Virus record (IMG/VR): IMGVR_UViG_3300042197_002946
Location: 1 to 64,000 of that record
Origin: a virus
Strand: one strand, 5' to 3'
DNA length: 64,000 bases
Shown here in pieces: positions 1-44,900 of the stretch (the first letter of the stretch is position 1; the number at the start of each line of letters is the position of its first letter). Position numbers and translations under genes: made by a program. Below the pieces are notes generated by a model, which saw nothing but the letters and a program-made list of their open reading frames with translations, was not told the DNA's origin and ran no database searches.

Positions 1-10
1 ATTTTGTTCG

Positions 11-88
11 TAAGTCGTTGTGGCATAAGCACTTACGACGCGGCGGGCCGGCCACCCTCGCCCTAAGTCATTGGCAGTCAACAACTTA
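11..88. repeat. 78-bp bipartite palindromic repeat, copy R1
   Basis: TAAGTCGTTG-N5-TAAGCACTTA (11-35), 28-bp GC-rich core, TAAGTCATTG-N5-CAACAACTTA (64-88). Confidence 0.95.
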
Positions 89-119
89 GAGCGATTGGCT
101 TTATTCGGCCTCAATAGGC

Positions 120-605
120 TCATCTTCTAAAAAACTCACCCATATTATATTCATCCCACAAACGCTTAGGAATCATATCGTGATGGGTATATTCCACATA
201 ATGATCCTCCCCATCCTGCCACAATCCACAGTAAGCCATACCCGGTTCCCAGTATGTAGCCTCAACCTTGAAGCCCAACTCTACCAGTCGCTCATACAAA
301 CCGATAGGAGGAGCCCAAGCACTATCAAAAGTCATACTGGCCTGATTGCCCACAATCGTAGGATTCAACCCATGAGCCTCATTATTATCACTACCAATAT
401 CCCACTTAGTACCCCAGTTATTCACACACCAGTTATACCAATAATCCGGGTGTTTATCGTCTGTAATCAACTCACCATTACCATCTCTTGGAACTGGCAA
501 ATAATGATCACAAACCTTACCTTCCTTATAGGCATGGACAAACTCCATTACCTTAGCCCTATCTTCATGCTCAATAGTCAGATTGTTAGAACACCAGTTT
601 GGCAT
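120..605 (-). CDS. Api92-like / DUF1281 ferredoxin-like domain protein
   Basis: MPNWCxN start, WYxW...NWGTKWD, FDSAWAPP, YWEPGM motifs; own promoter at 629-657. Confidence 0.75.
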   Translation of the reverse strand: MPNWCSNNLTIEHEDRAKVMEFVHAYKEGKVCDHYLPVPRDGNGELITDDKHPDYWYNWCVNNWGTKWDIGSDNNEAHGLNPTIVGNQASMTFDSAWAPPIGLYERLVELGFKVEATYWEPGMAYCGLWQDGEDHYVEYTHHDMIPKRLWDEYNMGEFFRR

Positions 606-659
606 TTTTCTTCCCTTTCTTTCCTTACATTCTATCTTACTATTATCGACTTGTCAACC

Positions 660-854
660 CTAGGACTTGAGAGTTTCGCTGACTACAGCCACCCCAGCCA
701 AATCCGTAGGATTAGCAGAGACTAGACTACGCTCCAGAAAAATATCACAACCATATTTATTGTTGGCTTTGATATAGGCGTCATATTCGCTATACGCCTC
801 AACATAACCCGCAATCCTACAGTTTTTCCACACAGTCCAACTATACATTTGCAT
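660..854 (-). CDS. hypothetical protein (probable start MQMYSW)
   Basis: GAGGTG SD before ATG at 854; promoter 873-901. Confidence 0.65.
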   Translation of the reverse strand: MQMYSWTVWKNCRIAGYVEAYSEYDAYIKANNKYGCDIFLERSLVSANPTDLAGVAVVSETLKS

Positions 855-920
855 TTCACACCTCATGAGCCTATCCTACCATAGTATCGGTAAACTGTCA
901 AGAGAAACTTGAACTAATCG

Positions 921-998
921 TAAAGTGTTGATAAATAAGGACTTACGATAAAAGCGGCCCCGCCGCCCCGCCCTAAGTCATTGGTATACAACAACTTA
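921..998. repeat. 78-bp repeat R2
   Basis: sites at 921-945 and 974-998, 53-bp offset. Confidence 0.9.
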
Positions 999-1028
999 GG
1001 GTCAGGGGTTAGGGCGAGCAGGATGATT

Positions 1029-1433
1029 TTACAGAAGATGGGCCAAACCCGCCTTAAAGAATGCACCAGCCAGCAACGGCTTACGGCAGTTCGTAGTACG
1101 CTCTGCATAGAAGTTACGCACACTGCCGTTAGGCATAGCACACGTTACCAGATGCGAGGTACGCTGAAACTGCGGATCATCACGACGATACCGGCTTCGG
1201 GCATTGAGCCTACGAATCGCAGCCTCGTCAAGGGTGTGAACGTCCAGCACCTTAGCCAGAAACCGCTCAGGATCACCCGCCAACGGCTGTTCATAAGTGA
1301 AGTTGAAAATATCTCCACGCTTGGCAGTCTTCATAGAGGCACGAACGCCACCATAAATACTATACGCACCAAACGCAACCAAACCAGCAGCAACCAAAGC
1401 AAACAAACCAGAAAGAACAATCCAATCGCTCAT
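1029..1433 (-). CDS. membrane-anchored hypothetical protein, possible WYL/SH3-like barrel
   Basis: N-terminal hydrophobic helix; FNFTY...R...RNFYAERT pattern; promoter 1472-1500. Confidence 0.65.
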   Translation of the reverse strand: MSDWIVLSGLFALVAAGLVAFGAYSIYGGVRASMKTAKRGDIFNFTYEQPLAGDPERFLAKVLDVHTLDEAAIRRLNARSRYRRDDPQFQRTSHLVTCAMPNGSVRNFYAERTTNCRKPLLAGAFFKAGLAHLL

Positions 1434-1496
1434 ACTAAACCCTTTCGTTTTGAAACCCTAAACCTACCATCAGTCTACCACAGGATCGACACCGTG

Positions 1497-1802
1497 TCAA
1501 CCCCCAACCAATACCATTTTGTCTTCAAACGGCGTACCATCACGCAGGAACCATTCATAGTTTTTCTGGTACACACTGACCGGACTATACTTGTTGATAC
1601 GCTTTTTGGTAGTGTGCGTCCGCCACCCGCCACTGTTCAACTGTACCAGTCCGTTTTCAAAAAGTCGCACCACTACCGTACCATGCAAGGCGATAGAAAC
1701 ACTACCATCATATTCGATATAGGCATAGGTGTTGTTTCCAATCTTTCGCTCTTTGCGATTAGTCTTACCACGAATCATCGAAACTGCTTCAGCGTGTGTC
1801 AT
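1497..1802 (-). CDS. phage hypothetical protein
   Basis: LHGT...LNSGGWRTHTTKKRIN motif familiar from phage hypotheticals; AAAGGG leader; promoter 1827-1855. Confidence 0.75.
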   Translation of the reverse strand: MTHAEAVSMIRGKTNRKERKIGNNTYAYIEYDGSVSIALHGTVVVRLFENGLVQLNSGGWRTHTTKKRINKYSPVSVYQKNYEWFLRDGTPFEDKMVLVGG

Positions 1803-1885
1803 ATTCTTTTCCCTTTCGTTTCACTAAGTCTACATCTATTATCGGCACTTGTCAAGCAGTATCTTTAGAAAAATCTTTTTTGTCG

Positions 1886-1963
1886 CAAGTCGTTGCAGCA
1901 TAAGCACTTACGTCGAGCGCGGCCGGCCCACTGCTATCTAAGTGCTTTAGCAGTAAGGGTTTA
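1886..1963. repeat. 78-bp repeat R3
   Basis: sites at 1886-1910 and 1939-1963. Confidence 0.95.
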
Positions 1964-1965
1964 CG

Positions 1966-2283
1966 TCAATCTTCTTTCCACGGATACCGATTCGCAGTTC
2001 CATAAAAATCATACAGATACTTGAATCGTTCATCTTTATAGCGCTCATATGTCTGTATCAGATCACGAACACCGCACTGATACAATATAGAGTTAGTCAT
2101 CTTATCCCAAGAATAGTTTCGGTAGCCATCCTTGGTAATCATGGTAACAAAGCCGTTACCAAACTTCATAATCGTACCCCACACATCCTTACCATGATAG
2201 GTAAAGTTTAGGGTATTGCTCAACCAATAAGGCCAATAAGGATTAGTACCGTTCATATTTGATATCTCCATCCGTTTCATCAA
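1966..2283 (-). CDS. hypothetical protein (start uncertain)
   Basis: ORF co-oriented with array; stop 2 bp from R3. Confidence 0.6.
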   Translation of the reverse strand: MMKRMEISNMNGTNPYWPYWLSNTLNFTYHGKDVWGTIMKFGNGFVTMITKDGYRNYSWDKMTNSILYQCGVRDLIQTYERYKDERFKYLYDFYGTANRYPWKED

Positions 2284-2467
2284 TACCCAATGCTGCGCCT
2301 ACCCCATAGTCGCCGTCAGCCACCCTAGCCTGTCGTCCAAGAATAAACTCCTGAGCATCCGCATAATTATCAAACCCATAAGGAGGATCTGGATAGAAAG
2401 CAATCCAACCATCCTTTCCAATGCGTTCACCATCATACTGTCCACCACAAACAGTCACCACAAACAT
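2243..2467 (-). CDS. hypothetical protein (probable start MFVVTV)
   Basis: AGGAG SD before ATG at 2467. Confidence 0.65.
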   Translation of the reverse strand: MFVVTVCGGQYDGERIGKDGWIAFYPDPPYGFDNYADAQEFILGRQARVADGDYGVGAALGIDETDGDIKYERY

Positions 2468-2468
2468 C

Positions 2469-2672
2469 TTATACTCCTGCTGGCCTATAGTGCTTTTGCA
2501 TAGCCATACGCACATCGTTCAATGTACGATAGTGACCAACATAGGTCAACGGCGGCTCCAAATAATACAACACAAAATGATTCCAATCAAGAGGCTTTTT
2601 GATGTATACTACCCTAAAACCCATCAATTGAGCATCAAATGTTAGATCGTCAATTTCTTGTTGTCTCAACAT
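2469..2672 (-). CDS. hypothetical protein
   Basis: AGGAG SD, tightly packed in operon. Confidence 0.65.
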   Translation of the reverse strand: MLRQQEIDDLTFDAQLMGFRVVYIKKPLDWNHFVLYYLEPPLTYVGHYRTLNDVRMAMQKHYRPAGV

Positions 2673-2681
2673 AATTATCTC

Positions 2682-2840
2682 CTAACCAAACAACTCATAT
2701 TCTTCATCGGTCAACGCTACTTCATCAGGACGATAGCAGTTATCACCATACAACTCACGATTAGTAGGACGCTTTTCCCACTCATCCATGAACCGATTGT
2801 ATTCTGCGATCAGTTCTCTTTCTTCTTCACTCTTACTCAT
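2682..2840 (-). CDS. 52-aa acidic protein, not in ORF track (MSKSEEERELIAEYNRF...)
   Basis: translated by hand; purine-rich leader; promoter 2875-2903. Confidence 0.65.
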   Translation of the reverse strand: MSKSEEERELIAEYNRFMDEWEKRPTNRELYGDNCYRPDEVALTDEEYELFG

Positions 2841-2924
2841 CTTTCACTTTCTTTCTTCTACTACTATTATCGACATTCTAGCATGGGAACTTTAGTTTGT
2901 CAAGCAGATTTTTCGGATTTGCTC

Positions 2925-3002
2925 TAAGTCGTTAGTGGATAAGCACTTACGTTAACGGCGGCCGGCCCGCTTCGCCGTAAGTGCTTACAGCGTAACGAGT
3001 TA
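2925..3002. repeat. 78-bp repeat R4
   Basis: sites at 2925-2949 and 2978-3002. Confidence 0.95.
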
Positions 3003-3006
3003 GATA

Positions 3007-3552
3007 CTAGATCACCTTACTAATATTGCTTTTGGTAAAGGGAACCCAGATACCTTCCTGGCCACGAGCCTTACAATGCCTACGATTTCTACTGAAAGCA
3101 ATACTGTAATCACTATCCCTCGCCACCCAAGTTGCCCAAGTAGAAATAAACTCTTTAGCCTTATCTCCACCGATCTGGATGCTAGTACCCTCTTTACCTA
3201 CAAAAACTAACACAATAAGATCAAACTGATTAGGCTTTATGTTCGGGAAAATATACTGTTTTCTTTCTTCTGATGATTTTACTTCCACGTTCAACCATTT
3301 GTCTTTGATTTTTACCAGCAGATCACAACTCTCTTGACCCTTCAACACTTGTGCAGGATAGCCCATTTTTCTAAATAAGTCGGCAACCAGAAATTCGCAC
3401 TTTCGCCCCTTCTGATGCCCACTACTATACAAATTTTGTGAGACAGGATCAATCACGCTATCATCGGCACCTTCTACAGAGTCATACCATTTCATGGCCT
3501 GCGTAAACTGACGCTGAGAAACAAAACCGGGAATTTTTGCTGTAGCGGGCAT
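3007..3552 (-). CDS. PD-(D/E)XK endonuclease-like protein
   Basis: GRKCE...CDLLV...VEVKSS...FDLIVLV; sole gene between R4 and R5. Confidence 0.65.
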   Translation of the reverse strand: MPATAKIPGFVSQRQFTQAMKWYDSVEGADDSVIDPVSQNLYSSGHQKGRKCEFLVADLFRKMGYPAQVLKGQESCDLLVKIKDKWLNVEVKSSEERKQYIFPNIKPNQFDLIVLVFVGKEGTSIQIGGDKAKEFISTWATWVARDSDYSIAFSRNRRHCKARGQEGIWVPFTKSNISKVI

Positions 3553-3647
3553 CTTACTTTCCTTTTTAGTGATGGCTCAATGCGGCTAGTATAATAGACA
3601 TATCGGTAATGTCAAGCACTAAAAATAAGAAAATTTAGAATTTGGCC

Positions 3648-3725
3648 TAAGTCGTTGTCGTATAAGCACTTACGTCAAAATCGGCCGGCCCGCCGCGTCG
3701 TAAGTCATTACGCAGCAAGGGTTTA
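3648..3725. repeat. 78-bp repeat R5
   Basis: sites at 3648-3672 and 3701-3725. Confidence 0.95.
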
Positions 3726-3727
3726 GG

Positions 3728-3799
3728 TCAACAGATAAAGTAAGCGAAAACCAACCCCAGGAAAAAGCCCGTACTAATGATCTTCTGTTCCGGTGTCAT
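3728..3799 (-). CDS. 23-aa hydrophobic microprotein (MTPEQKIISTGFFLGLVFAYFIC)
   Basis: GGAGG SD; stop 2 bp from R5. Confidence 0.5.
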   Translation of the reverse strand: MTPEQKIISTGFFLGLVFAYFIC

Positions 3800-3896
3800 T
3801 CTGTCCTCCATGAATAATATCGCAAAGACTCCACGCAAAGATAAACCCACACACATAACCGAAAATCACACTAATAAAGTCAATCTCAACTGGCAT
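3774..3896 (-). CDS. 40-aa single-TM microprotein (MPVEIDFISVIFGYVCGFIFAW...)
   Basis: GGAGG SD; translated by hand. Confidence 0.55.
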   Translation of the reverse strand: MPVEIDFISVIFGYVCGFIFAWSLCDIIHGGQNDTGTEDH

Positions 3897-4083
3897 AGGA
3901 AACCTCCGTGTAACTAAAACTTTCTACTTCACCTATAAGACTTTCCAACGCACCCGATACTGCCACAAGATTTTCGTATCGGTCAACTGCTTCGCTTAGG
4001 TCAATCGCTGGTACACTCACCACGCAACTGTTATAGGGTGTTCCATCCACAGTTTCAATATCGGTACACTTATAGTAACGCAT
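3886..4083 (-). CDS. hypothetical protein
   Basis: GGAG SD, TAATG coupling to upstream gene. Confidence 0.65.
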   Translation of the reverse strand: MRYYKCTDIETVDGTPYNSCVVSVPAIDLSEAVDRYENLVAVSGALESLIGEVESFSYTEVSYAS

Positions 4084-4484
4084 TAGAAATTCTCCGTAAA
4101 GTCAACACTAATCCCAAGTTGTTCTTGAACATCTGAGTCAGTAAGTATATCTTCGGAAATCATAAAGTCAAGGTCATCGAAAAATATTTCCAACTCCGGT
4201 TCACCATCATAGATCATTTGGAGTGCAAATTCGTACAGCATAAAATATGCCGTTGCCTGAACCCACGACGGCACTATACCCGAATGAAGTTCAATAGTGT
4301 CTCTATTAGAATAGACATACTCTATTGCGGCACATTTGGTATTATCATTCATATCACGCCATACTGGAATCCCTTTATTATATTTATTTAGTTCATAAGA
4401 TAACTGATTACGATTTTGCCAGTCTATATAGTCTGCGTATGTATACTCAATCATCGCCGTTGCTACTTTACGATAGTTCATCAA
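4083..4484 (-). CDS. hypothetical protein, acidic C-terminus
   Basis: overlaps stop of upstream gene, GGAGG SD. Confidence 0.7.
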   Translation of the reverse strand: MMNYRKVATAMIEYTYADYIDWQNRNQLSYELNKYNKGIPVWRDMNDNTKCAAIEYVYSNRDTIELHSGIVPSWVQATAYFMLYEFALQMIYDGEPELEIFFDDLDFMISEDILTDSDVQEQLGISVDFTENF

Positions 4485-4771
4485 TAGTCCTCCCCATAGT
4501 AACCGTAGTCCTCATCTGTTCCCCATCCAGCGTCACGCATGGCACTGTCAAAATCCCCATCCATACTATCATCATATTCATCACACCAAACATCATCTTC
4601 CTCCTCATCCCAACCATCATCATCCGTATGCGTCGAAAGTTCATGGGCCGCATCGGGATGATAGTTGCTACTGTCCTCGTCGAAAAAATCATCATGGTCA
4701 TCATAGTTATAGGCCATATCATCATCCTCGTAAGAGTTATCGGGATCGTAGCACGGGTCAGGATGGCTCAT
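4481..4771 (-). CDS. very acidic Asp-rich protein
   Basis: D/E-rich, C-terminal DGDFDSAMRDAGWGTDEDYG; promoter 4805-4833. Confidence 0.75.
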   Translation of the reverse strand: MSHPDPCYDPDNSYEDDDMAYNYDDHDDFFDEDSSNYHPDAAHELSTHTDDDGWDEEEDDVWCDEYDDSMDGDFDSAMRDAGWGTDEDYGYYGEDY

Positions 4772-4835
4772 TTTTTTCTCTCTCTTTCTTTCTTAGTTAT
4801 CGACAGTCTACCAGAAAAACTTTAGGTTGTCAAGA

Positions 4836-5045
4836 CTACCACCGATTGCGGCGGCACTCTTCTTGCCATGCCCGATCTTCTTCGATCTGGCGACGGGTTA
4901 CAGCCGGGCCGTATCCTTCTTCATATGCGTCACGGGCAGCATCATACCCGTCATCACTATTTTCCATCGGTTCGCAATGCTCCTTGCAACGCGAGCAAAT
5001 GTCACCACGATAGATCACAACTCCACAGCAATCACTCAACATCAT
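4836..5045 (-). CDS. small Cys-rich (zinc-finger-like) protein
   Basis: SDCCG...DICSRCKEHC; promoter 5068-5096. Confidence 0.7.
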   Translation of the reverse strand: MMLSDCCGVVIYRGDICSRCKEHCEPMENSDDGYDAARDAYEEGYGPAVTRRQIEEDRAWQEECRRNRW

Positions 5046-5127
5046 TCACCTTCTCTTTCTTACTCGTATCCTACAATACTATTATCGGCTTGTCAAGCAC
5101 TAAATCTTGAGAAAAATATTTTTGTTG

Positions 5128-5205
5128 TAAGTTGTTGGCAGATAAGCACTTACGTCGAGCGCGGCCGGCCCGCCGTTTCGTAAGTCCTTATTTATCAAGA
5201 CTTTA
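5128..5205. repeat. 78-bp repeat R6
   Basis: sites at 5128-5152 and 5181-5205. Confidence 0.95.
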
Positions 5206-5249
5206 CGCTGGCTATAGCCTATCTTGCCAGCCGGCAGGCTTAGGTAAGA

Positions 5250-5408
5250 CTACCAGCAGTCGTTAATAGCCTTACGATTCTGATCTTGGCGTGTGCGTTG
5301 TCGCTTAGGGCGACTGTCCATCTGTCCAGCACCGGACAAGTGTGCGTTGTGTCCCTTGCCCAGTTTCCACAGTGGACGCACGTTCAGTTTAAGTGTCTGC
5401 TTTTTCAT
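5250..5408 (-). CDS. 52-aa basic protein, not in ORF track (MKKQTLKLNVRPLWKLGKGH...RPKRQRTR...)
   Basis: TGATG coupling with upstream gene, GGAGG SD. Confidence 0.6.
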   Translation of the reverse strand: MKKQTLKLNVRPLWKLGKGHNAHLSGAGQMDSRPKRQRTRQDQNRKAINDCW

Positions 5409-5611
5409 CACTCCTCCCATCCGTAGTACGGGTCGTTATCCGGCTCATCATAGTAATCGTCCGGAAGGTCGATAGGTTCGTCGGCATCGTCCTCCCACCT
5501 GTCTGCCCACCAGTTATCTTCCGCTTCTTCGGCTTCGGGAACATACGGGTCTTCCGACCAGTTGCCGATATAGGATTCCATGTAGGAGTCGAGAAAGGAA
5601 TCTTCGTTCAT
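5408..5611 (-). CDS. very acidic protein (probable start MNEDSF)
   Basis: promoter 5652-5680 lies inside the longer called ORF; GGAGA SD before ATG at 5611. Confidence 0.7.
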   Translation of the reverse strand: MNEDSFLDSYMESYIGNWSEDPYVPEAEEAEDNWWADRWEDDADEPIDLPDDYYDEPDNDPYYGWEE

Positions 5612-5710
5612 AGCGAAACTCTCCAAAAGGTGGTGTTGTTGAACTGTGCCTAGTCTACACCTATTATCGTCGCTTGTCAAGTATCGTCTTTAGAAAAATA
5701 CCAATCGATG

Positions 5711-5788
5711 TAAGTCATTGATATATAAGTACTTAGGTCGAGCGCGGCCGGCCCGCCGCGTCGTAAGTCCTTACGCGGCAAGGGGTTA
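5711..5788. repeat. 78-bp repeat R7
   Basis: sites at 5711-5735 and 5764-5788; last 3 bp supply the TAA stop of 5786..5995. Confidence 0.95.
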
Positions 5789-5995
5789 CCGAACCTCTTC
5801 ACACCCGGCCCTACAATCCTGCATCACATTGCTCTGAATACACCTCCAGAGCCTGCCAGTTTCAAATGTGGCTACACAATTCATTGCCCCATGCACCTTA
5901 CAATGTGGTGTAGCGGCCACCTTATCGTGAGTGGTCTTGATTTCGACCAAATCGAAACGCGAGTTGTTATCGTTGATCGGCTTTATCTTCATCAT
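5786..5995 (-). CDS. small Cys/His (metal-binding) protein
   Basis: PHCKVHGAM...WRC...CRAGC. Confidence 0.65.
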   Translation of the reverse strand: MMKIKPINDNNSRFDLVEIKTTHDKVAATPHCKVHGAMNCVATFETGRLWRCIQSNVMQDCRAGCEEVR

Positions 5996-6128
5996 GAATA
6001 TACCATTGGTACAGAGTCGTACTGGCTAATTTCTTTAGATCGTCACTAAGGCTGTCGATAGCGAAAGTGGCTTCTTCGCTATCGACATCGGGGATTTCTG
6101 GAAAATCGAAGACGACATACACTTTCAT
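5967..6128 (-). CDS. 53-aa protein, not in ORF track (MKVYVVFDFPEIPDVDSEE...)
   Basis: AGGAGG SD; translated by hand. Confidence 0.6.
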   Translation of the reverse strand: MKVYVVFDFPEIPDVDSEEATFAIDSLSDDLKKLASTTLYQWYIHDEDKADQR

Positions 6129-6149
6129 TAGTGTTCCTCCTAGAGAGTA

Positions 6150-6242
6150 TCAGATACACTCACACTCATCGTGGTAGTGCCACCTACCGTCCGACCCGAA
6201 GTAATCGAACTCAACCCAAACGAACTCACTCTTCAGTCGCAT
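6150..6242 (-). CDS. 30-aa microprotein (MRLKSEFVWVEFDYFGSDGRWHYHDECECI)
   Basis: first ORF after promoter 6267-6295; GAGAGAG leader shared with other array genes. Confidence 0.5.
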   Translation of the reverse strand: MRLKSEFVWVEFDYFGSDGRWHYHDECECI

Positions 6243-6326
6243 CTTTCACTCTCTCTTTCTCTTCGTATTCTACACCCCTATTATCGTCCTGTCAATAGGG
6301 TGTTCTTGAGAAAATCTTTTTTGTCG

Positions 6327-6404
6327 CAAGTCGTTGGTACATAAGCACTTACGTCAAAATCGGCCGGCCCGCCGCGTCGTAAGTCCTTACGCAGCAAGGG
6401 GTTA
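6327..6404. repeat. 78-bp repeat R8
   Basis: sites at 6327-6351 and 6380-6404. Confidence 0.95.
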
Positions 6405-6406
6405 GG

Positions 6407-6670
6407 TTATCTCACAAGCCACGTTTCGCCGTGTTCGTCGATCATTTCCACAGCGTCGGCATACACTTCGTCGAAAATGTCCACACCCACCACTTCCGCC
6501 CAGTCAAGAGGGTGGCAAGTGTCCTCGTCGATAGGCTCCACAACCGGCTCCACAATTCCCTGCTCGGCCAGTTCGTCCAGAATCCGGTTCACATCTTCAA
6601 AATCGTTGAGCATCGTCTTCTCCCTGTGAAGTTCACCAATAAAGGCCATCATACTCGGAAAGTTGTTCAT
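6407..6670 (-). CDS. acidic hypothetical protein (start 6670 or 6613)
   Basis: stop 2 bp from R8; GGGAG SD before the 6613 ATG. Confidence 0.65.
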   Translation of the reverse strand: MNNFPSMMAFIGELHREKTMLNDFEDVNRILDELAEQGIVEPVVEPIDEDTCHPLDWAEVVGVDIFDEVYADAVEMIDEHGETWLVR

Positions 6671-6671
6671 G

Positions 6672-6758
6672 TCAACCCCTATCGTAAAGATAAACCGTAC
6701 AATAGAAAAATCCAACGTAAGACAATACAAAAGAGACACCGATCAGTATGTCGAGCAT
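6672..6758 (-). CDS. 28-aa single-TM microprotein (MLDILIGVSFVLSYVGFFYCTVYLYDRG)
   Basis: first ATG after promoter 6780-6808, AAGG leader. Confidence 0.5.
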   Translation of the reverse strand: MLDILIGVSFVLSYVGFFYCTVYLYDRG

Positions 6759-6797
6759 AACCTTTTCCTTTCTCTATTGATTCTACACACCTAAAAT

Positions 6798-6974
6798 CTA
6801 CTTGTCAATAGTTTTTTCCAAAATCGTATCCAAATAAATCTCCCGTTCAGTCACCACCCACCCATACTCACATCGAGGGGTATACACTCCAACATACAGT
6901 TTTCCACCATCCACACCTTCAAACCCCACACCATATCCTACCATACTGGCCAGCAAAAGCATAGTGATCATCAT
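6798..6974 (-). CDS. 58-aa protein with signal-peptide-like N-terminus, not in ORF track
   Basis: AAGGAG SD; MMITMLLLASMVG... Confidence 0.6.
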   Translation of the reverse strand: MMITMLLLASMVGYGVGFEGVDGGKLYVGVYTPRCEYGWVVTEREIYLDTILEKTIDK

Positions 6975-7037
6975 TTTTCTCCTTAGATATTATATCGGCC
7001 AACCCCCTAAATATCTTCACTAAAAATCCACAATCTC

Positions 7038-7115
7038 TAAGTCTTTATTCTGCAACAACTTACGTCGAGCGCGGCCGCGCCACCTTGCCGTAAGTGCTTT
7101 ACGGTCAAGGGTTTA
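7038..7115. repeat. 78-bp repeat R9
   Basis: sites at 7038-7062 and 7091-7115. Confidence 0.95.
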
Positions 7116-7117
7116 CG

Positions 7118-7330
7118 TCACGAAACTCCCATGTAAGAAGCATTTTCCGTACAATAGTCGTAGAACATATCGTTCAACACTTCTTCGTAGTTTTTGTCGG
7201 TCAAACGACGACGATCCATGGTAGACTCACACTCGGCAAAATACTTGCCGTTTTCTACCTCAAATACGATATTACAAGCATGGGCTTCACAACCCCAAAT
7301 CTTTCCTCTAGCCTTGATAAACTTCAACAT
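7118..7330 (-). CDS. hypothetical protein
   Basis: sole gene between R9 and R10; promoter 7357-7385; stop 2 bp from R9. Confidence 0.75.
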   Translation of the reverse strand: MLKFIKARGKIWGCEAHACNIVFEVENGKYFAECESTMDRRRLTDKNYEEVLNDMFYDYCTENASYMGVS

Positions 7331-7414
7331 CTGTTTCTCTCTTTCTGTGTGCTACGATTCTATACTACTTATCGGCCAATGTCAAGAGAATAGTTGAGAA
7401 AAAATTATTTGTGC

Positions 7415-7492
7415 TAAGTTGTTGCTATATAAGCACTTACAACAAAATCGGCCGCGCCGCCGTGTCGTAAGTCCTTACACGGCAAGAGTTTA
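7415..7492. repeat. 78-bp repeat R10
   Basis: sites at 7415-7439 and 7468-7492. Confidence 0.95.
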
Positions 7493-7495
7493 CGT

Positions 7496-7828
7496 TCAAT
7501 CCTTGAAAGCGAACGGGCTGATTTCCTCACCGTGTGCCATAATGGCAGCGTACTGTTCAGCCAGAGCATCTACCCTTTCCCGGCTTCCCGGCTTACCCAC
7601 CTTCACGATCATAGTATCATCACCCCCAATAAGGCGGGGATCGGCCTTCTCTGAACGTACCTTACCCAGACGACGCAATGCTTTGCGATTGAACTTCAAA
7701 ACTTTTTCCGATTGAATCGGGCCATACACACCATCGGCCAGCGTTGGCTGATGAGGAATAGCGATTCCAACAAAAGTCATACGGGCTTGAATCTTGGCGT
7801 TTTCGATGATGGGATACTTGGTTTTCAT
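7496..7828 (-). CDS. hypothetical protein (probable start MKTKYP)
   Basis: promoter 7854-7882 inside longer call; GAGAAAGAG leader. Confidence 0.7.
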   Translation of the reverse strand: MKTKYPIIENAKIQARMTFVGIAIPHQPTLADGVYGPIQSEKVLKFNRKALRRLGKVRSEKADPRLIGGDDTMIVKVGKPGSRERVDALAEQYAAIMAHGEEISPFAFKD

Positions 7829-7888
7829 CTCTTTCTCTCTTTCTTGTGAATGAAGTATAGACAGACAATCCGCAGGCGTCAATCCCCA

Positions 7889-8116
7889 CTATCGGGGGAT
7901 CGTGATATAACCCCTACAACCCACAAACGTGAGCGTCAAGGATCGACCGGGATACTTCCCGTCGATGTACCTTTGTGCAGTACGCTTGAGATTGTCGGTC
8001 GCACTAACACACTGTACGGGCGTACCGTTCTCATCCGTTACCATCCAGATTTTCTTTTCCACAACACGCGGAAGGCTAGCAATCCAACCATTCACACTCA
8101 TAACCTTTTCCATCAT
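7889..8116 (-). CDS. hypothetical protein
   Basis: promoter 8152-8180, GAGAGAG leader. Confidence 0.7.
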   Translation of the reverse strand: MMEKVMSVNGWIASLPRVVEKKIWMVTDENGTPVQCVSATDNLKRTAQRYIDGKYPGRSLTLTFVGCRGYITIPR

Positions 8117-8268
8117 TCACTCTCTCTTTCTCTCTTACTTCTTATATCGTCATTATACCAGCCCTATCTTGAACTTTCAAGAGAAATCTTTGGATTTTTG
8201 TGTCAAGAGATTTTGACAAAACTTTTTTGCATTTTTGGCATGATTGGTATACGGTTTGCTATGTGTTG

Positions 8269-8346
8269 TAAGTTGTTGTGTGATAAGCACTTACGTCAAA
8301 ATCGGCCGGCCCGCATCGTTGTAAGTACTTATACGACAAGGGTTTG
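8269..8346. repeat. 78-bp repeat R11
   Basis: sites at 8269-8293 and 8322-8346. Confidence 0.95.
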
Positions 8347-8352
8347 TGTCAA

Positions 8353-8577
8353 CTATTCAGCGTGAATGAACACCCGTTCACTCTTGGTTTGATTCGTCAC
8401 CGTCACAATCCAATTTTTTCCGCTACCGTCTTCACGCATGATGCCATTGATAAGGCCAACGTGAGCGTTACCCTTGGGGTCGAGAACGCAGTGATACTTT
8501 CCTGCCCTCATCGCACAGAAAATTTTGTCGAGGTTATTCGTGGTCACCCGGTACTGTGTTGCAAACATCATTTTCAT
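8353..8577 (-). CDS. phage hypothetical protein (REDGSG motif)
   Basis: IMREDGSGKNWIV; AAAGGG leader; promoter 8598-8626. Confidence 0.7.
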   Translation of the reverse strand: MKMMFATQYRVTTNNLDKIFCAMRAGKYHCVLDPKGNAHVGLINGIMREDGSGKNWIVTVTNQTKSERVFIHAE

Positions 8578-8632
8578 TTCCCTTTCGTGTTGGTTGTATT
8601 CTACAGAATCTTTTCGGGGTTGTCAATACTGT

Positions 8633-8881
8633 TCAGTAGTACAGGTAGTCTTCCAGAATACGTCCATCACGGTCAATGGTGATTCCCTCACCCTCATCAC
8701 CCATCGGAAAGAAATCCCCAATGTGGAAGGTACCATCCCTCAGATCGTGAGTAAGAGCCTCAGCCAGCAACTCTCCACCGATTCGAGCAACCCCAACCAA
8801 AGTATCGGGCGAAGTGCTGTCCGCACCATACAGGAACTCGACCAACTCATCTCGCGTGTTCAAGGTAACCATTTTCGTCAT
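8633..8881 (-). CDS. acidic hypothetical protein (probable start MTKMVT)
   Basis: GAGGAG SD; perfect promoter 8901-8929. Confidence 0.7.
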   Translation of the reverse strand: MTKMVTLNTRDELVEFLYGADSTSPDTLVGVARIGGELLAEALTHDLRDGTFHIGDFFPMGDEGEGITIDRDGRILEDYLYY

Positions 8882-8965
8882 CTCCTCTTGTGTTGAACGT
8901 ATTATACATATCGGCTTTTGTCGTGTCAATACCTTAGAAAATTTTTTTTTGGATTTTTTACTGAC

Positions 8966-8981
8966 TGCAAATACCGTGCCA
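8966..8981 (-). promoter_or_regulatory. sigma54 (-24/-12) consensus motif at head of array
   Basis: minus strand reads TGGCACGGTATTTGCA, matching TGGCACG-N4-TTGCW. Confidence 0.5.
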
Positions 8982-8998
8982 TTCAAGGGGTCTACATA

Positions 8999-9076
8999 TA
9001 AGTCCTTATATATCATATACTTACGTCAAAAATGGCCGCTCCGCTTAGCCGTAAGTCCTTATATTCCAGGCACTTA
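8999..9076. repeat. 78-bp repeat R12 (last, more diverged)
   Basis: sites at 8999-9023 and 9052-9076. Confidence 0.9.
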
Positions 9077-9184
9077 GGTCAAGGGGGTTTTTTCGTTTTT
9101 CAAAGGACTGCCCAAATTTTGCGATTTCGGCCACGGTGGTGCAAACATAATAGGCACAGATAAAATCGTAATGTACTACCTAAA

Positions 9185-10114
9185 CTATAAAGGTTGCCCT
9201 TTGTGTTCTCGATACCAGGATATAGTTTGTTGCAATCCATCTTTTAACGACACCATAGCTTTCCACCCTAGACAAGAATGAGCCAAAGTAGAATCTACAC
9301 ATCGTCTTGGTTGTCCGTCTGGCTTAGAATCATCCCAATCTATAGACCCTTCAAAATTCATTAGATCTGCTATGAGATTGGTCAAATCTTTAATGCTAAT
9401 TTCTATACCTCCACCCAGATTCATAGGATCGGACGAAGTGTTTTGTGATAAACTTAATACTATGGCCCGAGCAGCATCAGCAGCATATAAAAACTCACGA
9501 GTAGCTTTTCCGGTACCCCATACAGTGATCTTACTATGACCCATAGACTGCGCATCATGGATTTTTTTAATAAGAGCCGGTATCACATGACTAGATGATG
9601 GATCAAAATTATCATATGGTCCATATAAATTAGAAGGTACTACAATTGTGCTGTTCATCCCGTATTGTTCTTTATAGGCCCCCAACATTACATACAAAGC
9701 TTTCTTAGCCACCCCATATGGAGCATTAGTTTACTCAGGATACCCACTCCACATATCTTTTTCCTGGAAAGGAACAGTACAATACTTAGGATACGAACAC
9801 ACCGTCCCCACCTGCACAAATTTCTTGACATTATACAACCTACTGCCTTCAATAATATTTAAGCCCATCATCATATTATCGTAAAAGAATCGCCCAGGAT
9901 TTTCTTTGTTAGCTCCAATACCTCCTACCACAGCAGCTAAATGAATCACAGCATCAGGACCATGATCAGCAAACATACGATATGTGTCTTGACAAGATCT
10001 GAGATCATAATCTTTGGATCGTACAACTACAATATCATTATAGCTTTTATCTGCTAATTCTTTAATCACATATTTGCCTAAAAATCCAGCACCACCAGTA
10101 ACTAATACTTTCAT
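9185..10114 (-). pseudogene. fcl: GDP-L-fucose synthase interrupted by one in-frame TAA (9731-9733)
   Basis: GGAGFLG, HLAAVVGGIGAN, GYPE*TNAPYGVAKK, NLYGP, SHVIPALI, WGTGKATREF, KPDGQPRR; both halves are in the same frame. Confidence 0.85.
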
Positions 10115-10121
10115 AAAATTC

Positions 10122-11957
10122 TTATTCTACAGTTACGCTTTTAGCTAAGTTTTTGGGTTTGTCAATATTACAACCTCGTAATACTGCCATATGATAAGCA
10201 AATAACTGGGTAACCACAACTGATATAAATACTGACAAAGCATCTATACAAGATGGTACTTTAATACCATAGTCACCCACATAATCCTCACCACTATATA
10301 TTGTAATAACCTTGCCTGACCTAGCTCTTATTTCTTGTATATTATTTACTATTTTATCATAATTAGACTGAGTATTCGCAATAACCACCACTGGCATATT
10401 TTTATCTATTAACGCAATAGGACCGTGCTTCATTTCTGCCGCAGGATAACCCTCAGCATGAACATAACTAATTTCTTTGAGTTTCAATGCTCCTTCCAGA
10501 GCTATCGGAAAGTTGTAGCCACGCCCCAAAAACAAACAATGCTTGGACTTTTTAAACTTATTAGCCAATACCTCTATATTTTTATTTAAACCCAAGGCCT
10601 GGTCTATTAGTACATGTACATATTTTAATTCATCAATTAATGCTCTTCTATACTCAGGTATCATATGATAGCCCTTAACCTGATCGATCCACAAAGAGAG
10701 CAGAAGTAAACACGCTACCTGATTAGAAAAAGCTTTCGTACTAGCCACCCCTATTTCTGCACCAGCTCTTAGATACATTCCACATCTAGTAGCTCGTGCT
10801 AACGATGAATCTACAACATTACAAATACCCAATGTCAAAGCCCCTTTACTATTTGCTAATTCTATAGCGCTCAATGTATCTGCCGTTTCACCACTTTGAC
10901 TAATTCCTACTATAATATCTTGTGCAGATAAGACTGGCTTTCTATATCTAAATTCGCTAGCATATTCCACGCTAACTTTAATATTACAAAATTCTTCAAT
11001 ATAATATTTAGCTAATAATCCAGCGTGCCAGCTTGAACCACAAGCCACGATAGTCAAATGATTACAGTTTCTAAATTGATTTTCATAATTTAACAATCCC
11101 CCAAGCTGAATCCTATAACCATCAATTCGCCCACTCAAACAATTAGAGATACATTTGGGTTGTTCATAGATCTCTTTCAACATAAAATGATCATATTTCC
11201 CCTTCTCAATATCATACCACTGATGCTCCAATTTTTTAATGTTACATTTAGAAATTCTATCACCCGCCATAGAGTATATATCTAATTTAACATTTATTTC
11301 AGCCACAGTATTATCATCAAGATAAACCACCTTTTCTGCATAATTAATCAAGGCCCCAGCATCACTAGCCACATAAAAATCTTGATTATTTTTGCATAAC
11401 CCCACTACCAAAGGACTGCCCTTTCTGGCCAACACCAGTTTATTTCTATTATTTTTATTATTATCCATAACTACAATAGCATACGCCCCCACTACTCTTT
11501 CTAAAGCTAGTTGCACAGCTTCTCTTAAACTGGTAGTAGTATCTACTAAATAGTCATATATTAAATATAACAAAACCTCGGTATCTGTATCTGAGCGGAA
11601 AAAATATCCTTTATCTTTTAGTTCTGCTTTTAAAGTATCGTAATTTTCTATAATACCGTTATGAACAATAGCCAATCTACCATCCACCGATACATGAGGA
11701 TGAGCGTTGCGGCCACAAGGTTTACCATGAGTGGCCCATCTGGTATGCCCCATCCCTACAAAAGCTTCTGTCTCAAAATCAATACAATTATTCACCAAAT
11801 CAGTGACAGATCCTGGCTGCTTATGACAAGCTAGGGTATCTCCTATCTGATAGGCTACCCCAGCACTATCATAACCCCTATATTCTAGTCTTTTTAGACC
11901 ATCTATGATAAATGGTAAGCACTTTTTAGAACCTTTATAACCCACTATTCCGCACAT
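10122..11957 (-). CDS. glmS: glutamine--fructose-6-phosphate aminotransferase
   Basis: MCGIVG start at 11957, LEYRGYDSAG, GHTRWATHG, SQSGETADT, EGALKLKE, NLAKSVTVE. Confidence 0.97.
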   Translation of the reverse strand: MCGIVGYKGSKKCLPFIIDGLKRLEYRGYDSAGVAYQIGDTLACHKQPGSVTDLVNNCIDFETEAFVGMGHTRWATHGKPCGRNAHPHVSVDGRLAIVHNGIIENYDTLKAELKDKGYFFRSDTDTEVLLYLIYDYLVDTTTSLREAVQLALERVVGAYAIVVMDNNKNNRNKLVLARKGSPLVVGLCKNNQDFYVASDAGALINYAEKVVYLDDNTVAEINVKLDIYSMAGDRISKCNIKKLEHQWYDIEKGKYDHFMLKEIYEQPKCISNCLSGRIDGYRIQLGGLLNYENQFRNCNHLTIVACGSSWHAGLLAKYYIEEFCNIKVSVEYASEFRYRKPVLSAQDIIVGISQSGETADTLSAIELANSKGALTLGICNVVDSSLARATRCGMYLRAGAEIGVASTKAFSNQVACLLLLSLWIDQVKGYHMIPEYRRALIDELKYVHVLIDQALGLNKNIEVLANKFKKSKHCLFLGRGYNFPIALEGALKLKEISYVHAEGYPAAEMKHGPIALIDKNMPVVVIANTQSNYDKIVNNIQEIRARSGKVITIYSGEDYVGDYGIKVPSCIDALSVFISVVVTQLFAYHMAVLRGCNIDKPKNLAKSVTVE

Positions 11958-12387
11958 ATTTTTCCTCATGCCAAAGCAACACTTCTTTGCATAATGCAAT
12001 AAATTCTTCTGGCAATAAATCTCCCTTGGCCTGATTAGCCTCTCTACAAACTATTTGACAATTGTCTAAACTATTATCTCCCCCTTTATTTTTGGGAATA
12101 ATATGATCCAAATGATACGAAGGACCATCAGACAAATTAATAGGGCGACCAGTTAATTGACAAACAGGATCATCCCCTATCTTTTTCAATAAATCCTTAG
12201 CGTTAAATTTCATGGGACTGTATGTTCCTTCCTTTTTATTACGGCCAAATCTAATAATTTTAATACCCAGAATTTTACTAACAGATCTATCCTCAGATAT
12301 AAATTGTATAAACTTGGTCTTCTTTTTATAATTATCTCTATACCCCTTATAGTTCTCTATTTTCTTCACTATAGGATGCTTAGTCAT
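11935..12387 (-). CDS. HNH endonuclease
   Basis: CQLTG...HLDHIIP..KGG.NSLDN...C..AN.AK. Confidence 0.85.
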   Translation of the reverse strand: MTKHPIVKKIENYKGYRDNYKKKTKFIQFISEDRSVSKILGIKIIRFGRNKKEGTYSPMKFNAKDLLKKIGDDPVCQLTGRPINLSDGPSYHLDHIIPKNKGGDNSLDNCQIVCREANQAKGDLLPEEFIALCKEVLLWHEEKYVRNSGL

Positions 12388-13037: not shown

Positions 13038-13110
13038 AAAATTGGTCCTTTCGATTATATTGTTGACTAAAGTGTATACAACCATATAATAGTATCAAGT
13101 TGGCTTTTTT

Positions 13111-13308
13111 ATGCAAGGAGAAAAAATGATCGATCAGAACAATCCACAATTTGTGCAAAGCGTGCTAAATGTCAAAGCAACCGCTAATTGTGAAGTCTCA
13201 GAAGCTGAACTGCATTTACCAGAAGGAAAAAGCATAGCCGAATTAATCTATGAAGAAAAAGAAAAAAGTAATCAAACCCAAGATCCAGAAAAAGAAGCGA
13301 ATTCCTAA
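13111..13308 (+). CDS. hypothetical protein
   Basis: first gene of the rightward block; AAGGAG SD before ATG at 13126. Confidence 0.6.
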   Translation: MQGEKMIDQNNPQFVQSVLNVKATANCEVSEAELHLPEGKSIAELIYEEKEKSNQTQDPEKEANS

Positions 13309-13954
13309 AGCTAAAGCTAAGATATCATCACTACCACACAATGTAGACGAACAAGAATTTGTAAGAGTAGTAGAGAATATTAGTAAAAGATTAGGATACA
13401 AATTTAAATTTGGCTATCATGATTTTGACGACATGAAGCAGCAGGCTTATATATTTGCTTTAGAAGGATTACAAAAGTACGATAATAAAAGACCACTAGA
13501 AAACTTCCTGTGGACCCATATTCGTAATCGATTGTTTAATTACAAAAGAAACAACTATCAACGACCTGACAAGCCTTGTTTTACATGTCCGCTATTCGAT
13601 AAGACATACTCATGCTCCAACAATCAATGCTCCAAATTTACGAATAAGCAAGATTGTGAATTGTATGCTAATTGGTCAACCAGAAATGAAACCAAAAAGA
13701 ATATTATGCAACCTTCTTATATTGATAAGGAGCCTGAGTCTTCTAAATTTGCTTCTAATAATTTAATTGACAATATTGAGAATAAAGAAATATTAGATTT
13801 CTTAGACAAAAATATATCACTAGAACATAGAGAAAACTATCTTAAGCTTAAACACGGACTCAAAATACCTAAACTTCAATTAGTTAAATTACAACAATAT
13901 ATTCAAACTCTTATAGAGCAAAAGTATCAATGCCCAAAAAACGCGGACAATTAA
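13250..13954 (+). CDS. phage sigma70-family factor (region 2) with Cys-rich insert
   Basis: DDMKQQAYIFALEGLQKYD...LENFLWTHIRNRLFNYKR; CFTC...CSNNQC...C. Confidence 0.75.
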   Translation: MKKKKKVIKPKIQKKKRIPKAKAKISSLPHNVDEQEFVRVVENISKRLGYKFKFGYHDFDDMKQQAYIFALEGLQKYDNKRPLENFLWTHIRNRLFNYKRNNYQRPDKPCFTCPLFDKTYSCSNNQCSKFTNKQDCELYANWSTRNETKKNIMQPSYIDKEPESSKFASNNLIDNIENKEILDFLDKNISLEHRENYLKLKHGLKIPKLQLVKLQQYIQTLIEQKYQCPKNADN

Positions 13955-41904: not shown

Positions 41905-44900
41905 ATGGCTAAAGCTTTTAATCTTACAGCAGAATTAAATCTTAGAGGCCCATCTAATCTCAAGCAGATAGCAGCGTCCATTCGTAGAGAGATCGGGACC
42001 GTAGACGCTACTGTTAATGTTAAGATAGACAGAGCGGCCGAAAGATCCATACTTAATAGTGCTAATGCTCTAAATAGATTAAATAGAGAACTTCAGACAA
42101 CAGCAACAGCCTCAGCCTCATCCACCAATAACATCAACAACCTTGTCGCATCATTAAATAGCCTAAGTAATGCTTTGACTGGATCTAATAATTCTATGCA
42201 GCGCATAGTTTCTACATCAGAGCAAACAGCCAGACAAATGTCTCGAATTAGAAAGACGACAGCAGTAGCGCGAGATGAGATGGAAGAGTTTGGTCGTCAA
42301 TCAGCTTTGGCTGTGCGACGTTTTGCTGCCTTTAATTTTGCTACCGGAGTTATTTATGGTTTTTATAATGCAATTTCCAAAGCTTTGGGAGAATTTACAG
42401 AGTTTGATAGACAGTTGGTGCGATTAACGCAAATTACTGGAGAATCTTATAGCGAGCTAAGCAGGATAACAGAAACAATTACTGGATTATCAACCGGCTT
42501 GGGTGTTGCATCAGGAGACCTTATCCGCATATCGGATACATTAGCTCAGGCTGGCTTGAGTGCCAGAGAAACAGACCAAGCATTGAGGGCTTTGGCTTTG
42601 ACGGCTCTAGCTCCGTCCTTCGATGACCTGAATAACACTGTCGAAGGATCTATTGCATTAATGAGACAGTTTAAAATCGGTACTGATGATTTAGCTGGCG
42701 CTCTAGGTTCTATTAACGCAGTAGCTGCTGGTTTTGCTGTTGAGGCCGGTGATATTATTACAGCTATTCAGCGTACTGGTGGTGTGTTTGCCGCAGCTAG
42801 TAAAGGGGTTAGCGAAGGCACCGATGCGTTAAATGAATTTATTGCGGTATTTACTAGTGTAAGAGCCACAACTCGTGAAAGCGCAGAAACAATTGCTACA
42901 GGCTTGAGAACTATTTTTACTCGTATTCAACGAGAAGATACTATTGAGGCATTAAAAGAATATGGAGTTAATCTATTGGATGTAGAAGGTAAATTCGTTG
43001 GAGCTTATCGAGCTGTACAATTACTAAGCGAAGGTCTTGGCAAACTAGATCCTAGAGACGTAAGCTTTTCTAGAATAGTAGAAGAGCTTGGTGGATTTAG
43101 ACAGATTGGTAAGGTGCTTCCGTTGATTCAAGAATTCAGCACAGCACAACAAGCTTTAACAGTAGCTCAAAGAGGGCAAAATTCATTAGCGGCAGATGCA
43201 GCCAAAGCTCAGTCAGCATTAACAGTACAGTTTACCAAGACTAGAGAGTCATTTGTTGCTTTAATTCGAGATATTGGCAGTAGCGATAGCTTTAAAACAC
43301 TTATTAGTTTAGGCTTGACACTAGCTAATACATTCATCAAAGTAGCTGATTTCGCCAAGCCTCTACTTCCCATCCTAACAACCATCGCAGCATTACAAGG
43401 AGCTAAATCGTTAACGAGTTTTGTTGGTGGTTTCGTAGGGGGATTGCGTAAAGTACGTCCGGGAGAAGACGGAGGGGGCGGTGGAGGACCAGCTAATAGG
43501 GCTAGAACTGAAAGATCAGCCGCAGACATTACAGATAACTCTAGATATTTAGACGCCAACACCACAGCTTTGATGGGTCTGGGTACAGCTATGGGGGGTC
43601 TAACAGCAGTTATTAGTCCATTACAAGCTTCTATAGATAATTTGGGTAATGCAGCTATAGCTCAATTAAATAATGAGATTGTTGCTCTGAACAACACTAT
43701 GAGCAGTATTGATCTAGGCGGAGCCGCAACAGCTAAAGATGGTGGCAGAATATTACGTTTTGCTAGAGGAGGAGCTGTTCCTGGTAGCGGACGAGGAGAC
43801 AAAGTTCCGGCCATGCTGGAACCCGGTGAAGTTGTTATGAGCAATCGGGCTGTTAGTAAGTATGGAAGAGGTAATTTGGTAAGGATGAATAAGTATGCAA
43901 AAGGAGGAAAACCAAAAAGAGGAGTTCCTAATCAAGTTAATACTACGGATGTGGTTGATGGAGATACAATTGGTGCAGACATTTTCACCAATCTAACATT
44001 TAGATTTAGCGGAATTGACGCTCCAGAAAAATCTGAACCGCTTGGTGACAAAGCGACATCGGTATTGACTAACAAGAAGTTGAGCTACTTTAATAACAAA
44101 ATCACAAGTGGCGTCGGAGGTAAATCCAGGGGCTTATTTAAAGACGATGCATTAGCTGGCCAAATGATTCGTAGTGGTTTGGCAGTTCCAGATATAAGAT
44201 ATGCTAAGAACAAATTTAGTAGTGATGTTGAAGCAGGTAGAGCAGCAGGACAGGGCTTATGGAATAGTTCGTATGCTAATCATCCTAAAAGATTACAGTT
44301 TAAAGAGCAATACGGATATAGTTTTGGGGGTCAAATTCAAAAATTTATGAGCGGATCAGCCGGAGGAGTTAAGTCTAAACCCGAACCATTCGGTACAGGA
44401 GTCACCAAATTTCCTCGTCGTATAAGTAATGCCTACGCTAAACAGACGGAAAAGGAAAAGACAGATAGACATTTTGATAGACTCATACAAAACAGTCCTA
44501 TTAATGAAAGAATCATGGTTGATGAGGCTATGGAACAGCAGATATCCCAAGGGATGCAGCAGCCATTAGATCGTGAAAAATTTGCAGCGTCTTTTAGACG
44601 AGCTGTTTTAAGAGACGAAATAGCATCCAACATATCTAATTTTGCTAAATTGGTTGGACTTCCACAAGAAGATTTGTCTGTAGTATTACCAAGACAACTA
44701 GATTTTGGCTCTGGTTCTGGTCCTATAGGATCTCGTGGAGGTAGAGATGTTTTAGGTGGGGCTTTTACAACCATTAGTCCTTATGGTAGTCGTGGAGCAG
44801 AAGGCTGGGATCTTAGTGAGTTTGGTTATACTAAGCAGGACGAACAAGACCTATTCGGCTTAGAAAAACTGTTAGAAGAAAAGAAAAAAGAACGTGATAA

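Follow-up and report, generated by a model that had tools for sequence, protein, structure and literature searches.

A repeated double-dyad module in helical register with sigma70-type promoters in the early-gene array of a large uncultured freshwater phage

In the T4-type phages RB49/phi1, PST and nt-1, small early genes are carried as promoter-early stem-loop (PeSL) cassettes, in which a composite intergenic module of ~100-130 bp recurs between the ORFans of a plastic region; the module combines a GC-rich palindrome with an A/T-rich stretch and a strong early promoter of the sigma70-like type (PMC2839356, PMC4122927). Indels between relatives join inside this module, and only general phage recombination is involved, with no dedicated recombinase. 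A second relevant design is the p4 binding region of phage phi29, where sites 1-4 at promoters A2c, A2b and A3 are imperfect inverted-repeat pairs at promoters of the host RNA polymerase in the early-to-late switch region; each repeat is a dimer site upstream of or over the promoter, and the multimeric complex bends the DNA (PMC3100819). Here, we describe a module with likenesses to both, found in 12 copies in an early-gene array at one end of the viral contig IMGVR_UViG_3300042197_002946 (150,336 bp; IMG/VR class linear; CheckV completeness 100%), which comes from an uncultured freshwater phage. The stretch that we analyzed, hereafter the window, is the initial 64 kb of this contig (64,000 nucleotides). 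We regard the module as probably, though by no means certainly, a phased protein-docking site at sigma70-type early promoters that doubles as a joint for homologous recombination.

The array spans 5..9082 (-) and holds, besides the 12 modules, ~18 sigma70-type promoters and ~25 small ORFan genes, all on the minus strand, which is the coding strand for genes across 1-12.4 kb. A preliminary description of the window had reported 12 copies of a 78-bp repeat with a 28-bp core, an exact 53-bp offset between the two sites of each copy, and an imperfect inverted repeat overall. Our profile search (nhmmer, E 1e-18 to 2e-26) recovered the 12 copies at the expected starts and no others in the 150,336-bp contig, and because the copies align without gaps, the 53-bp offset is exact in all 12. 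Each copy was also matched by the profile on the opposite strand, so the overall imperfect dyad is real. The double-dyad layout was therefore as described, while its dimensions required refinement: the arms reach 6 bp further outward, so the repeat unit is a 16-bp motif present four times, the module measures 90 bp, and its core is 16 rather than 28 bp long. The motif, TTGnCGTAAGTCCTTA, is arranged as two 37-bp inverted repeats whose centers lie 53 bp (five helical turns) apart and flank a GC-rich core around GGCCGGCC. Along the direction of transcription, the order is motif, 5-bp spacer, inverted motif, core, motif, spacer, and inverted motif. The information content of the motif is 14.9 bits, and 41 of its 46 matches in the genome fall inside the array. 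A slight likeness of the arms to the CIRCE arm, the T4 MotA box and the IHF core was considered and dropped because of a misfit in spacing or orientation, and we make no claim of it.

Numbered by increasing position, and with the start given in the preliminary description in brackets, the copies lie at 5..94 (copy 1; 11), 915..1004 (copy 2; 921), 1880..1969 (copy 3; 1886), 2919..3008 (copy 4; 2925), 3642..3731 (copy 5; 3648), 5122..5211 (copy 6; 5128), 5705..5794 (copy 7; 5711), 6321..6410 (copy 8; 6327), 7032..7121 (copy 9; 7038), 7409..7498 (copy 10; 7415), 8263..8352 (copy 11; 8269) and 8993..9082 (copy 12; 8999), all on the minus strand. Copy 12 is the first along the direction of transcription, and the contig ends 4 nt beyond copy 1. 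Successive copies are spaced by 910, 965, 1039, 723, 1480, 583, 616, 711, 377, 854 and 730 bp, and the small unrelated genes and promoters in these units of 377-1480 bp all share one strand, as had been stated. Downstream of the module, 13-26 nt of UP-like sequence rich in A/T lead to the -35 and -10 boxes, and beyond these, a purine-rich ribosome site precedes a small gene. On its other side, the stop codon of the upstream gene falls inside the repeat or within 6 bp of it at 8 of the 12 copies (those starting at 1886, 2925, 3648, 5711, 6327, 7038, 7415 and 8269), again in agreement with the earlier reading; at copy 3, the stop of gene 1966-2283 lies within the first motif.

The module belongs to a family carried by related uncultured phages. 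A pattern scan of IMG/VR returned at least 116 stretches holding at least 574 modules, and with the 12 of the window, the family set comprises at least 586 modules, spread over the window itself and 85 segments of 76 contigs. All family counts given here refer to the copies, segments and contigs listed among these matches. Module-bearing contigs measure up to 244 kb, and clade contigs of 100-240 kb carry 10 to >20 modules per genome. The geometry is close to fixed, with an inner ACTTA-to-TAAGT distance of 33 bp in 409 of 414 copies and an offset of 53 bp in 374 of 393. The first motif carries TAA in 81% and TGA in 31% of copies, and it often supplies the stop codon itself. Orientation is similarly constrained: the sigma70-type promoters of each segment are nearly all on one strand (e.g., 26 vs. 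0), the majority module orientation matches the promoter strand in 83 of 86 segments, and the polarity of individual modules agrees with it in 528 of 584 copies. A module pattern scan of 185,579 species genomes gave 9 stretches, of which only 4 held true modules, all on short contigs of metagenome-assembled genomes (MAGs) from three unrelated taxa. These contigs, all from freshwater, were L119 and L122 (Alphaproteobacteria MAG LLD_269), L123 (a Methylococcaceae MAG) and L118 (a Flavobacteriales MAG). Because the contigs are short and the taxa unrelated, they are probably mis-binned phage DNA, and the scan of these species genomes revealed no chromosomal host regulon and no nameable host. Our literature searches found no published description of the module, which does not disprove that one exists.

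The ~18 minus-strand promoters of the array match TTGACA-17-TAGAAT at 10-12 of 12 positions, and 17 of the 25 strong sigma70-type promoters of the genome lie within its first 9 kb. At the module-linked promoters, an A/T-rich stretch of 13-26 nt stands ahead of the -35 box. These promoters, all (-), are at 873..901 (13 nt past copy 2), 1827..1855 (24 nt past copy 3), 2875..2903 (15 nt past copy 4), 3588..3615 (26 nt past copy 5), 5068..5096 (25 nt past copy 6), 5652..5680 (24 nt past copy 7), 6267..6295 (25 nt past copy 8) and 7357..7385 (23 nt past copy 10). Further promoters lie at 8152..8180 (-), ~83 nt past copy 11, and at 8901..8929 (-), 63 nt past copy 12, the latter with 12/12 consensus matches. 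Copy 9 is without a canonical -35/-10 pair downstream and is followed only by GCCGATATAAT. As a separate observation, the 16-17-nt spacers of the promoters at window 629-8929 (-) nearly always contain (G)CCGATAA or (G)CCGATAT, 3-5 nt past the -35 box, and the same sequence is present in 236 of 282 module-linked promoters of the relatives. This is the -10 box of sigma28/sigmaD-type promoters, and it may mark a second nested promoter or a spacer contact.

Across the family, the module stands in a fixed relation to the promoter that follows it. A strict promoter occurs within 84 nt downstream of 331 of 561 modules, compared to 1 of 561 upstream, on the same strand. The gap from the module end to the -35 box clusters at 14, 24-25, 35, 46 and 58 nt, and the Rayleigh vector strength peaks near 11 bp (R = 0.61-0.68). 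After removal of the main peak, the remaining gaps were still in phase with it, and when each of 69 downstream gene families contributed only one modal gap, the signal was retained (R 0.55-0.58, p ~1e-10). If transcription is assumed to start 7 nt past the -10 box, the promoter-proximal dyad is centered near -67, -78, -88, etc. Dependence on the face of the helix characterizes factors that contact RNA polymerase or loop DNA, as with class I activators and looping repressors. Because letters, spacing and polarity are conserved and the distance to the -35 box changes in ~11-bp steps, the module is best read as a candidate protein-bound operator in register with its promoter. Fixed polarity and helical register with the directly downstream promoter also make the docking of a regulator its likelier primary role. 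Both features had been overlooked in the preliminary description.

The conservation pattern bears on what kind of molecule would recognize the module. Its conserved elements are the letters TAAGT, ACTTA, TTG and CTTA together with the geometry, while the variable positions pair at chance level. We tested pairing in the global hairpin, the two local cruciforms and all other column pairs. Among 477 distinct copies, Watson-Crick frequencies at variable positions equaled the expectation from independent columns, and column pairs in excess of it were confined to the A/T stretch. In a MAFFT alignment of 116 copies, the global hairpin was 61.7% paired vs. 63.7% after shuffling, the local cruciforms were 66.5% paired vs. 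66.6%, and covariation scores did not surpass those of shuffles. G-T and A-C mismatches were equal in frequency, and a terminator scan found no terminator-like site within any module of the window. Neither a folded site of the attC type nor a classical terminator is supported, given the lack of covariation, the equal stability of the two strands, the rarity of U-tracts and the absence of an integrase, resolvase or RAYT (see below). To judge from their layout, four alternating motif copies at five-turn spacing would suit a dimer-of-dimers DNA-binding protein rather than an RNA or single-strand fold.

The least improbable alternative is an RNA-level element, with a hairpin at the 3' end of each unit that, like the stem-loop part of a PeSL, stabilizes the 3' end, is processed by an RNase III-type enzyme or terminates transcription despite lacking a U-tract. 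The position of the module directly after a stop codon in 8 of 12 copies is in line with this, as is a predicted fold of about -26 kcal/mol, and runs of at least four T follow the core in 12% of copies on the transcribed strand vs. 3.6% on the other. PeSL stem-loops, moreover, terminate transcription (PMC2839356). However, covariation was absent in every register, the mean minimum free energies of the two strands were effectively the same (-26.0 vs. -26.3 kcal/mol, no strand bias), folding z-scores on the transcribed strand were only -0.8 to -2.2, and no Rfam family matched the module. A hairpin would also leave unexplained why four motifs are conserved as letters when two of them read as the complement in RNA, and why the module is helically phased with the next promoter. 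We therefore consider an RNA-level role unlikely as the main explanation.

Relatives of this phage differ by whole gene units, which brings a probable second role of the module into view. To compare synteny, we called genes on the promoter strand only and compared the downstream neighbor of homologous genes between contigs. At protein identities of ≥95%, the neighbor was conserved in 62% of cases with a module at the junction vs. 83% without one; the corresponding values were 51% vs. 60% at 80-95% identity, 34% vs. 56% at 60-80%, and 25% vs. 32% below 60%. The ends of blocks of ≥88% identity were 2.3-fold enriched in modules and 1.5-fold in promoters, and half of them lay inside genes. Among 20 clean indels of ≥300 bp, which partly repeat the same events because two query contigs are near-identical, 18 had one or both ends in a module or promoter, 10 of them both. 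In one case, a 707-bp unit with a promoter and a 181-amino-acid open reading frame (ORF) lies between two modules (L074:889-1819 (-)), and a single hybrid module stands in its place in a relative (L092:9009-9228); near-identity between the two extends to the GC core and resumes at the UP stretch. In another, the window carries three extra units (4835-6295) compared to the relative G001, with the joint at the -35 box.

Cassette gain and loss at the repeat is, then, real, and it matches the PeSL model (PMC2839356) rather than the integron. The preliminary description had proposed a modular platform, likened both to integron attC cassettes and to PeSL units. Unit orders among relatives do differ by whole cassettes, with joints in the module or promoter, so the plastic array and the PeSL comparison held up. 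The attC analogy failed, as there is no covariation and no tyrosine or serine recombinase, and the units have their own promoters. In sum, the earlier observation was confirmed, and its interpretation was partly supported. Small early genes are most likely gained and lost at the module by ordinary recombination rather than by an integron-like enzyme.

Documented recombination at modules raises the possibility that the module has no specific reader at all and serves as a patch of homology in the PeSL manner, with gene conversion and recombination among its copies and those of co-infecting phages keeping it uniform. Base composition is as expected of a shared mobile gene pool. The array (window 1-9100) has the highest G+C content of any 9 kb in the genome, 44.7% vs. 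36.4% in the rest, and at third codon positions, its genes reach 46% vs. 26% in structural genes, a value that fits a gene pool exchanged among phages. However, the same columns are invariant or variable across 76 contigs whose cassette proteins have diverged to <60% identity, and the spacing never drifts. Conversion alone would make entire tracts of a genome uniform and would maintain neither a pattern of individual motifs nor an 11-bp register with the promoter. We think this explanation improbable.

Another protein-based explanation would place the module outside transcription, as a docking site for a protein, either of the host or injected, that acts on the DNA end as it enters, e.g., in entry pausing, nuclease protection, compaction, partition or replication. 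The array does lie at one contig end, it is where the host-type promoters lie and would therefore probably be expressed first, and its sites are multiple, strong and regularly spaced. The contig and its 140-kb relative G001 (90% identity) begin at the identical base, 4 nt beyond a module (window 1; L094:1), which may reflect either a break of the assembly in the repeat or a genuine end. As the preliminary description had suspected, the array continues left of position 1: in the near-identical relative G002 (L029:1-320), the sequence extends past this point, first into an A/T stretch and a promoter and then into a GP88/DUF7227-like gene, which has no counterpart anywhere in the present genome. 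In a 229-kb relative, however, the array spans the contig ends (L059, L008, L041; at least 23 modules), and in others, it sits mid-contig, so a contig-end position is not a feature of the family. By its helical phasing and polarity, each module is tied to its promoter, and HU/IHF, the sole reader of this kind tested, had no match in the genome. Handling of the DNA end is likewise improbable as the function of the module.

The last alternative concerns an enzyme of its own. The preliminary description had seen no recombinase in the window, and we extended this to the whole 150-kb genome (CheckV 100%), where no tyrosine recombinase (PF00589) was matched, although the control genomes all matched. 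The whole genome also gave no serine recombinase or resolvase, no match to RAYT (REP-associated tyrosine transposase; Y1 HUH transposase, PF01797) and no match to RecT or ERF. A RecA/UvsX-like recombinase gene is present outside the window (G000:132267-133088 (-); PF00154, 60 bits). Dedicated site-specific recombination, with an unrecognized recombinase acting on the four half-sites (res/dif-type or folded attC), cutting in the GC core and making the array a true cassette platform, is very improbable: the four half-sites in a rigid dyad layout do resemble a synaptic site, and indels with modules at both ends vs. one hybrid module, together with a similarity switch near the core, do occur, but genes for a tyrosine or serine recombinase or for HUH/RAYT are missing from a genome of 100% CheckV completeness, joints are scattered (one at the -35 box, half of the block ends inside genes), module-free junctions break almost as often, and fixed polarity and promoter phasing would play no part. 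We give as little credence to the related idea that the module is a synapsis or crossover site of an unrecognized recombinase family, or of a regulator doubling as a recombination-directing factor, which would make the array an integrase-free phage counterpart of the integron in a large aquatic phage clade.

Comparison with the described systems places the module between them. The array is like PeSL regions in the features given above, but the PeSL palindrome is a simple GGGG...CCCC stem, whereas the present module is a rigid four-motif double dyad conserved as letters. Its place is always ahead of the UP stretch and in helical register with the promoter, there is no indication of terminator activity, and the phage lineage is unrelated. 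For the design of the site, the closest functional analogue is the phi29 p4 region. Still, phi29 has one such region, while this genome has 12 and its relatives at least 20; the half-sites are 16-5-16 here compared to CTTTTT-15-AAAATG in phi29; and the sites here are clear of the -35 box, with the p4 homologue absent. Integron attC arrays are similar in that small unrelated genes on one strand are bounded by an imperfectly palindromic four-arm site at the stop codon. However, it is the folded single-strand structure that is conserved in attC, IntI is required, and integron cassettes are promoterless and driven by a common Pc. In the present array, sequence rather than pairing is conserved, an integrase is absent, and each unit has its own promoter. 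Repetitive extragenic palindromic (REP) sequences and bacterial interspersed mosaic elements (BIMEs) with their RAYT also form many-copy intergenic palindrome pairs after stop codons; here, by contrast, there is no RAYT and no structural covariation, and the copies form a single array of fixed polarity rather than being dispersed.

If the module is a protein-docking site, a sequence-specific protein would bind the double-stranded 90 bp, in the simplest arrangement as one dimer per inverted repeat, with the two joined as a tetramer. The complex would lie on one helix face, immediately ahead of the UP-like, A/T-rich stretch that precedes an early promoter of the host sigma70 type. There, it would control the linked promoter. 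Its effect would most likely be to silence or insulate the early units after the phage sigma-like factor has taken over, but may instead be activation. The binding protein would probably be phage-encoded. The ~130 bp of module and promoter, which recur every 0.4-1.5 kb, would at the same time serve as the crossover tract for general homologous recombination, and the RecA/UvsX-like gene would serve crossover between module copies. As with PeSL elements, phages would in this way acquire, lose and exchange small early genes as complete units.

The phage sigma-like gene to which this model refers lies at 13250-13954 (+) (Sigma70_r2, E 5.5e-5; PHROG 1740). It is oriented away from the early array, is preceded by a sigma70-type promoter at 13063-13090 with 11/12 consensus matches, and likely represents the switch to middle and late transcription.

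Several observations weigh against protein docking at early promoters or limit how far it can be taken. A minor series of gaps at 29, 39-40 and 50 nt is out of phase with the main one, and the phasing statistics are not fully independent because module copies are related by descent. Eight of the ~18 array promoters, as well as the sigma-gene promoter, stand without a module; the eight are internal promoters at 629..657, 1472..1500, 4144..4171, 4805..4833 (directly downstream of a module in the relative G001), 6648..6675, 6780..6808, 7854..7882 and 8598..8626, all (-). The module is therefore dispensable for promoter activity as such, which in turn favors shut-off or insulation over activation. 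Near-consensus promoters with UP-like stretches also scarcely need an activator. Candidates for the binding protein have not come forward either: in addition to HU/IHF, the phi29 p4 family (PF05464) had no match in the genome, and no protein binding the module was identified among the candidates searched. The most conserved array protein (window 7496-7828) is present in 42 of 76 contigs and gave no lead in Pfam, PHROG, PDB-profile or ESM Atlas searches, and its AlphaFold model (pLDDT 72, pTM 0.35) showed no fold match and no recognizable DNA-binding fold. Ten further conserved array families were likewise without annotation. Finally, the module would still fold as an RNA hairpin and may have an added role at the RNA level.

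Nearly all array proteins are ORFans, the single Pfam match being Kyano_Gp96. A megablast search found no close relatives among isolated phages, and the large terminase subunit (TerL) shows only 23-26% identity, to terminases of Microcystis phage MaeS and Bacillus siphoviruses. Upstream of the array on the minus strand, a gene for an NAD-dependent epimerase/dehydratase is split into adjacent ORFs (9185-9712 and 9731-10114), with 127 amino acids of the N-terminal part and 175 of the C-terminal part, which may reflect a frameshift, a pseudogene or a sequencing error. A GlmS-like glutamine-fructose-6-phosphate aminotransferase follows at 10122-12387 (-) (625 amino acids, ~43% identity to copies in phage records), and an HNH endonuclease gene ahead of it overlaps its start. 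Farther along the window, a giant ORF at 41905-59718 (+) encodes 5937 amino acids, and the next one, at 59735-64000 (+), exceeds 1422 amino acids and continues beyond the window.

If protein docking at the module is correct, a whole clade of large uncultured freshwater phages would run its early genes, of the host-takeover type, from one shared operator design. The module would then be a defined DNA bait for the master regulator of the early-to-late switch. In metagenomic phage contigs, it flags early promoters and an accessory gene pool consisting almost entirely of ORFans. The notion behind PeSL, in which a regulatory repeat is also a joint for recombination, would likewise extend to a lineage unrelated to T4.

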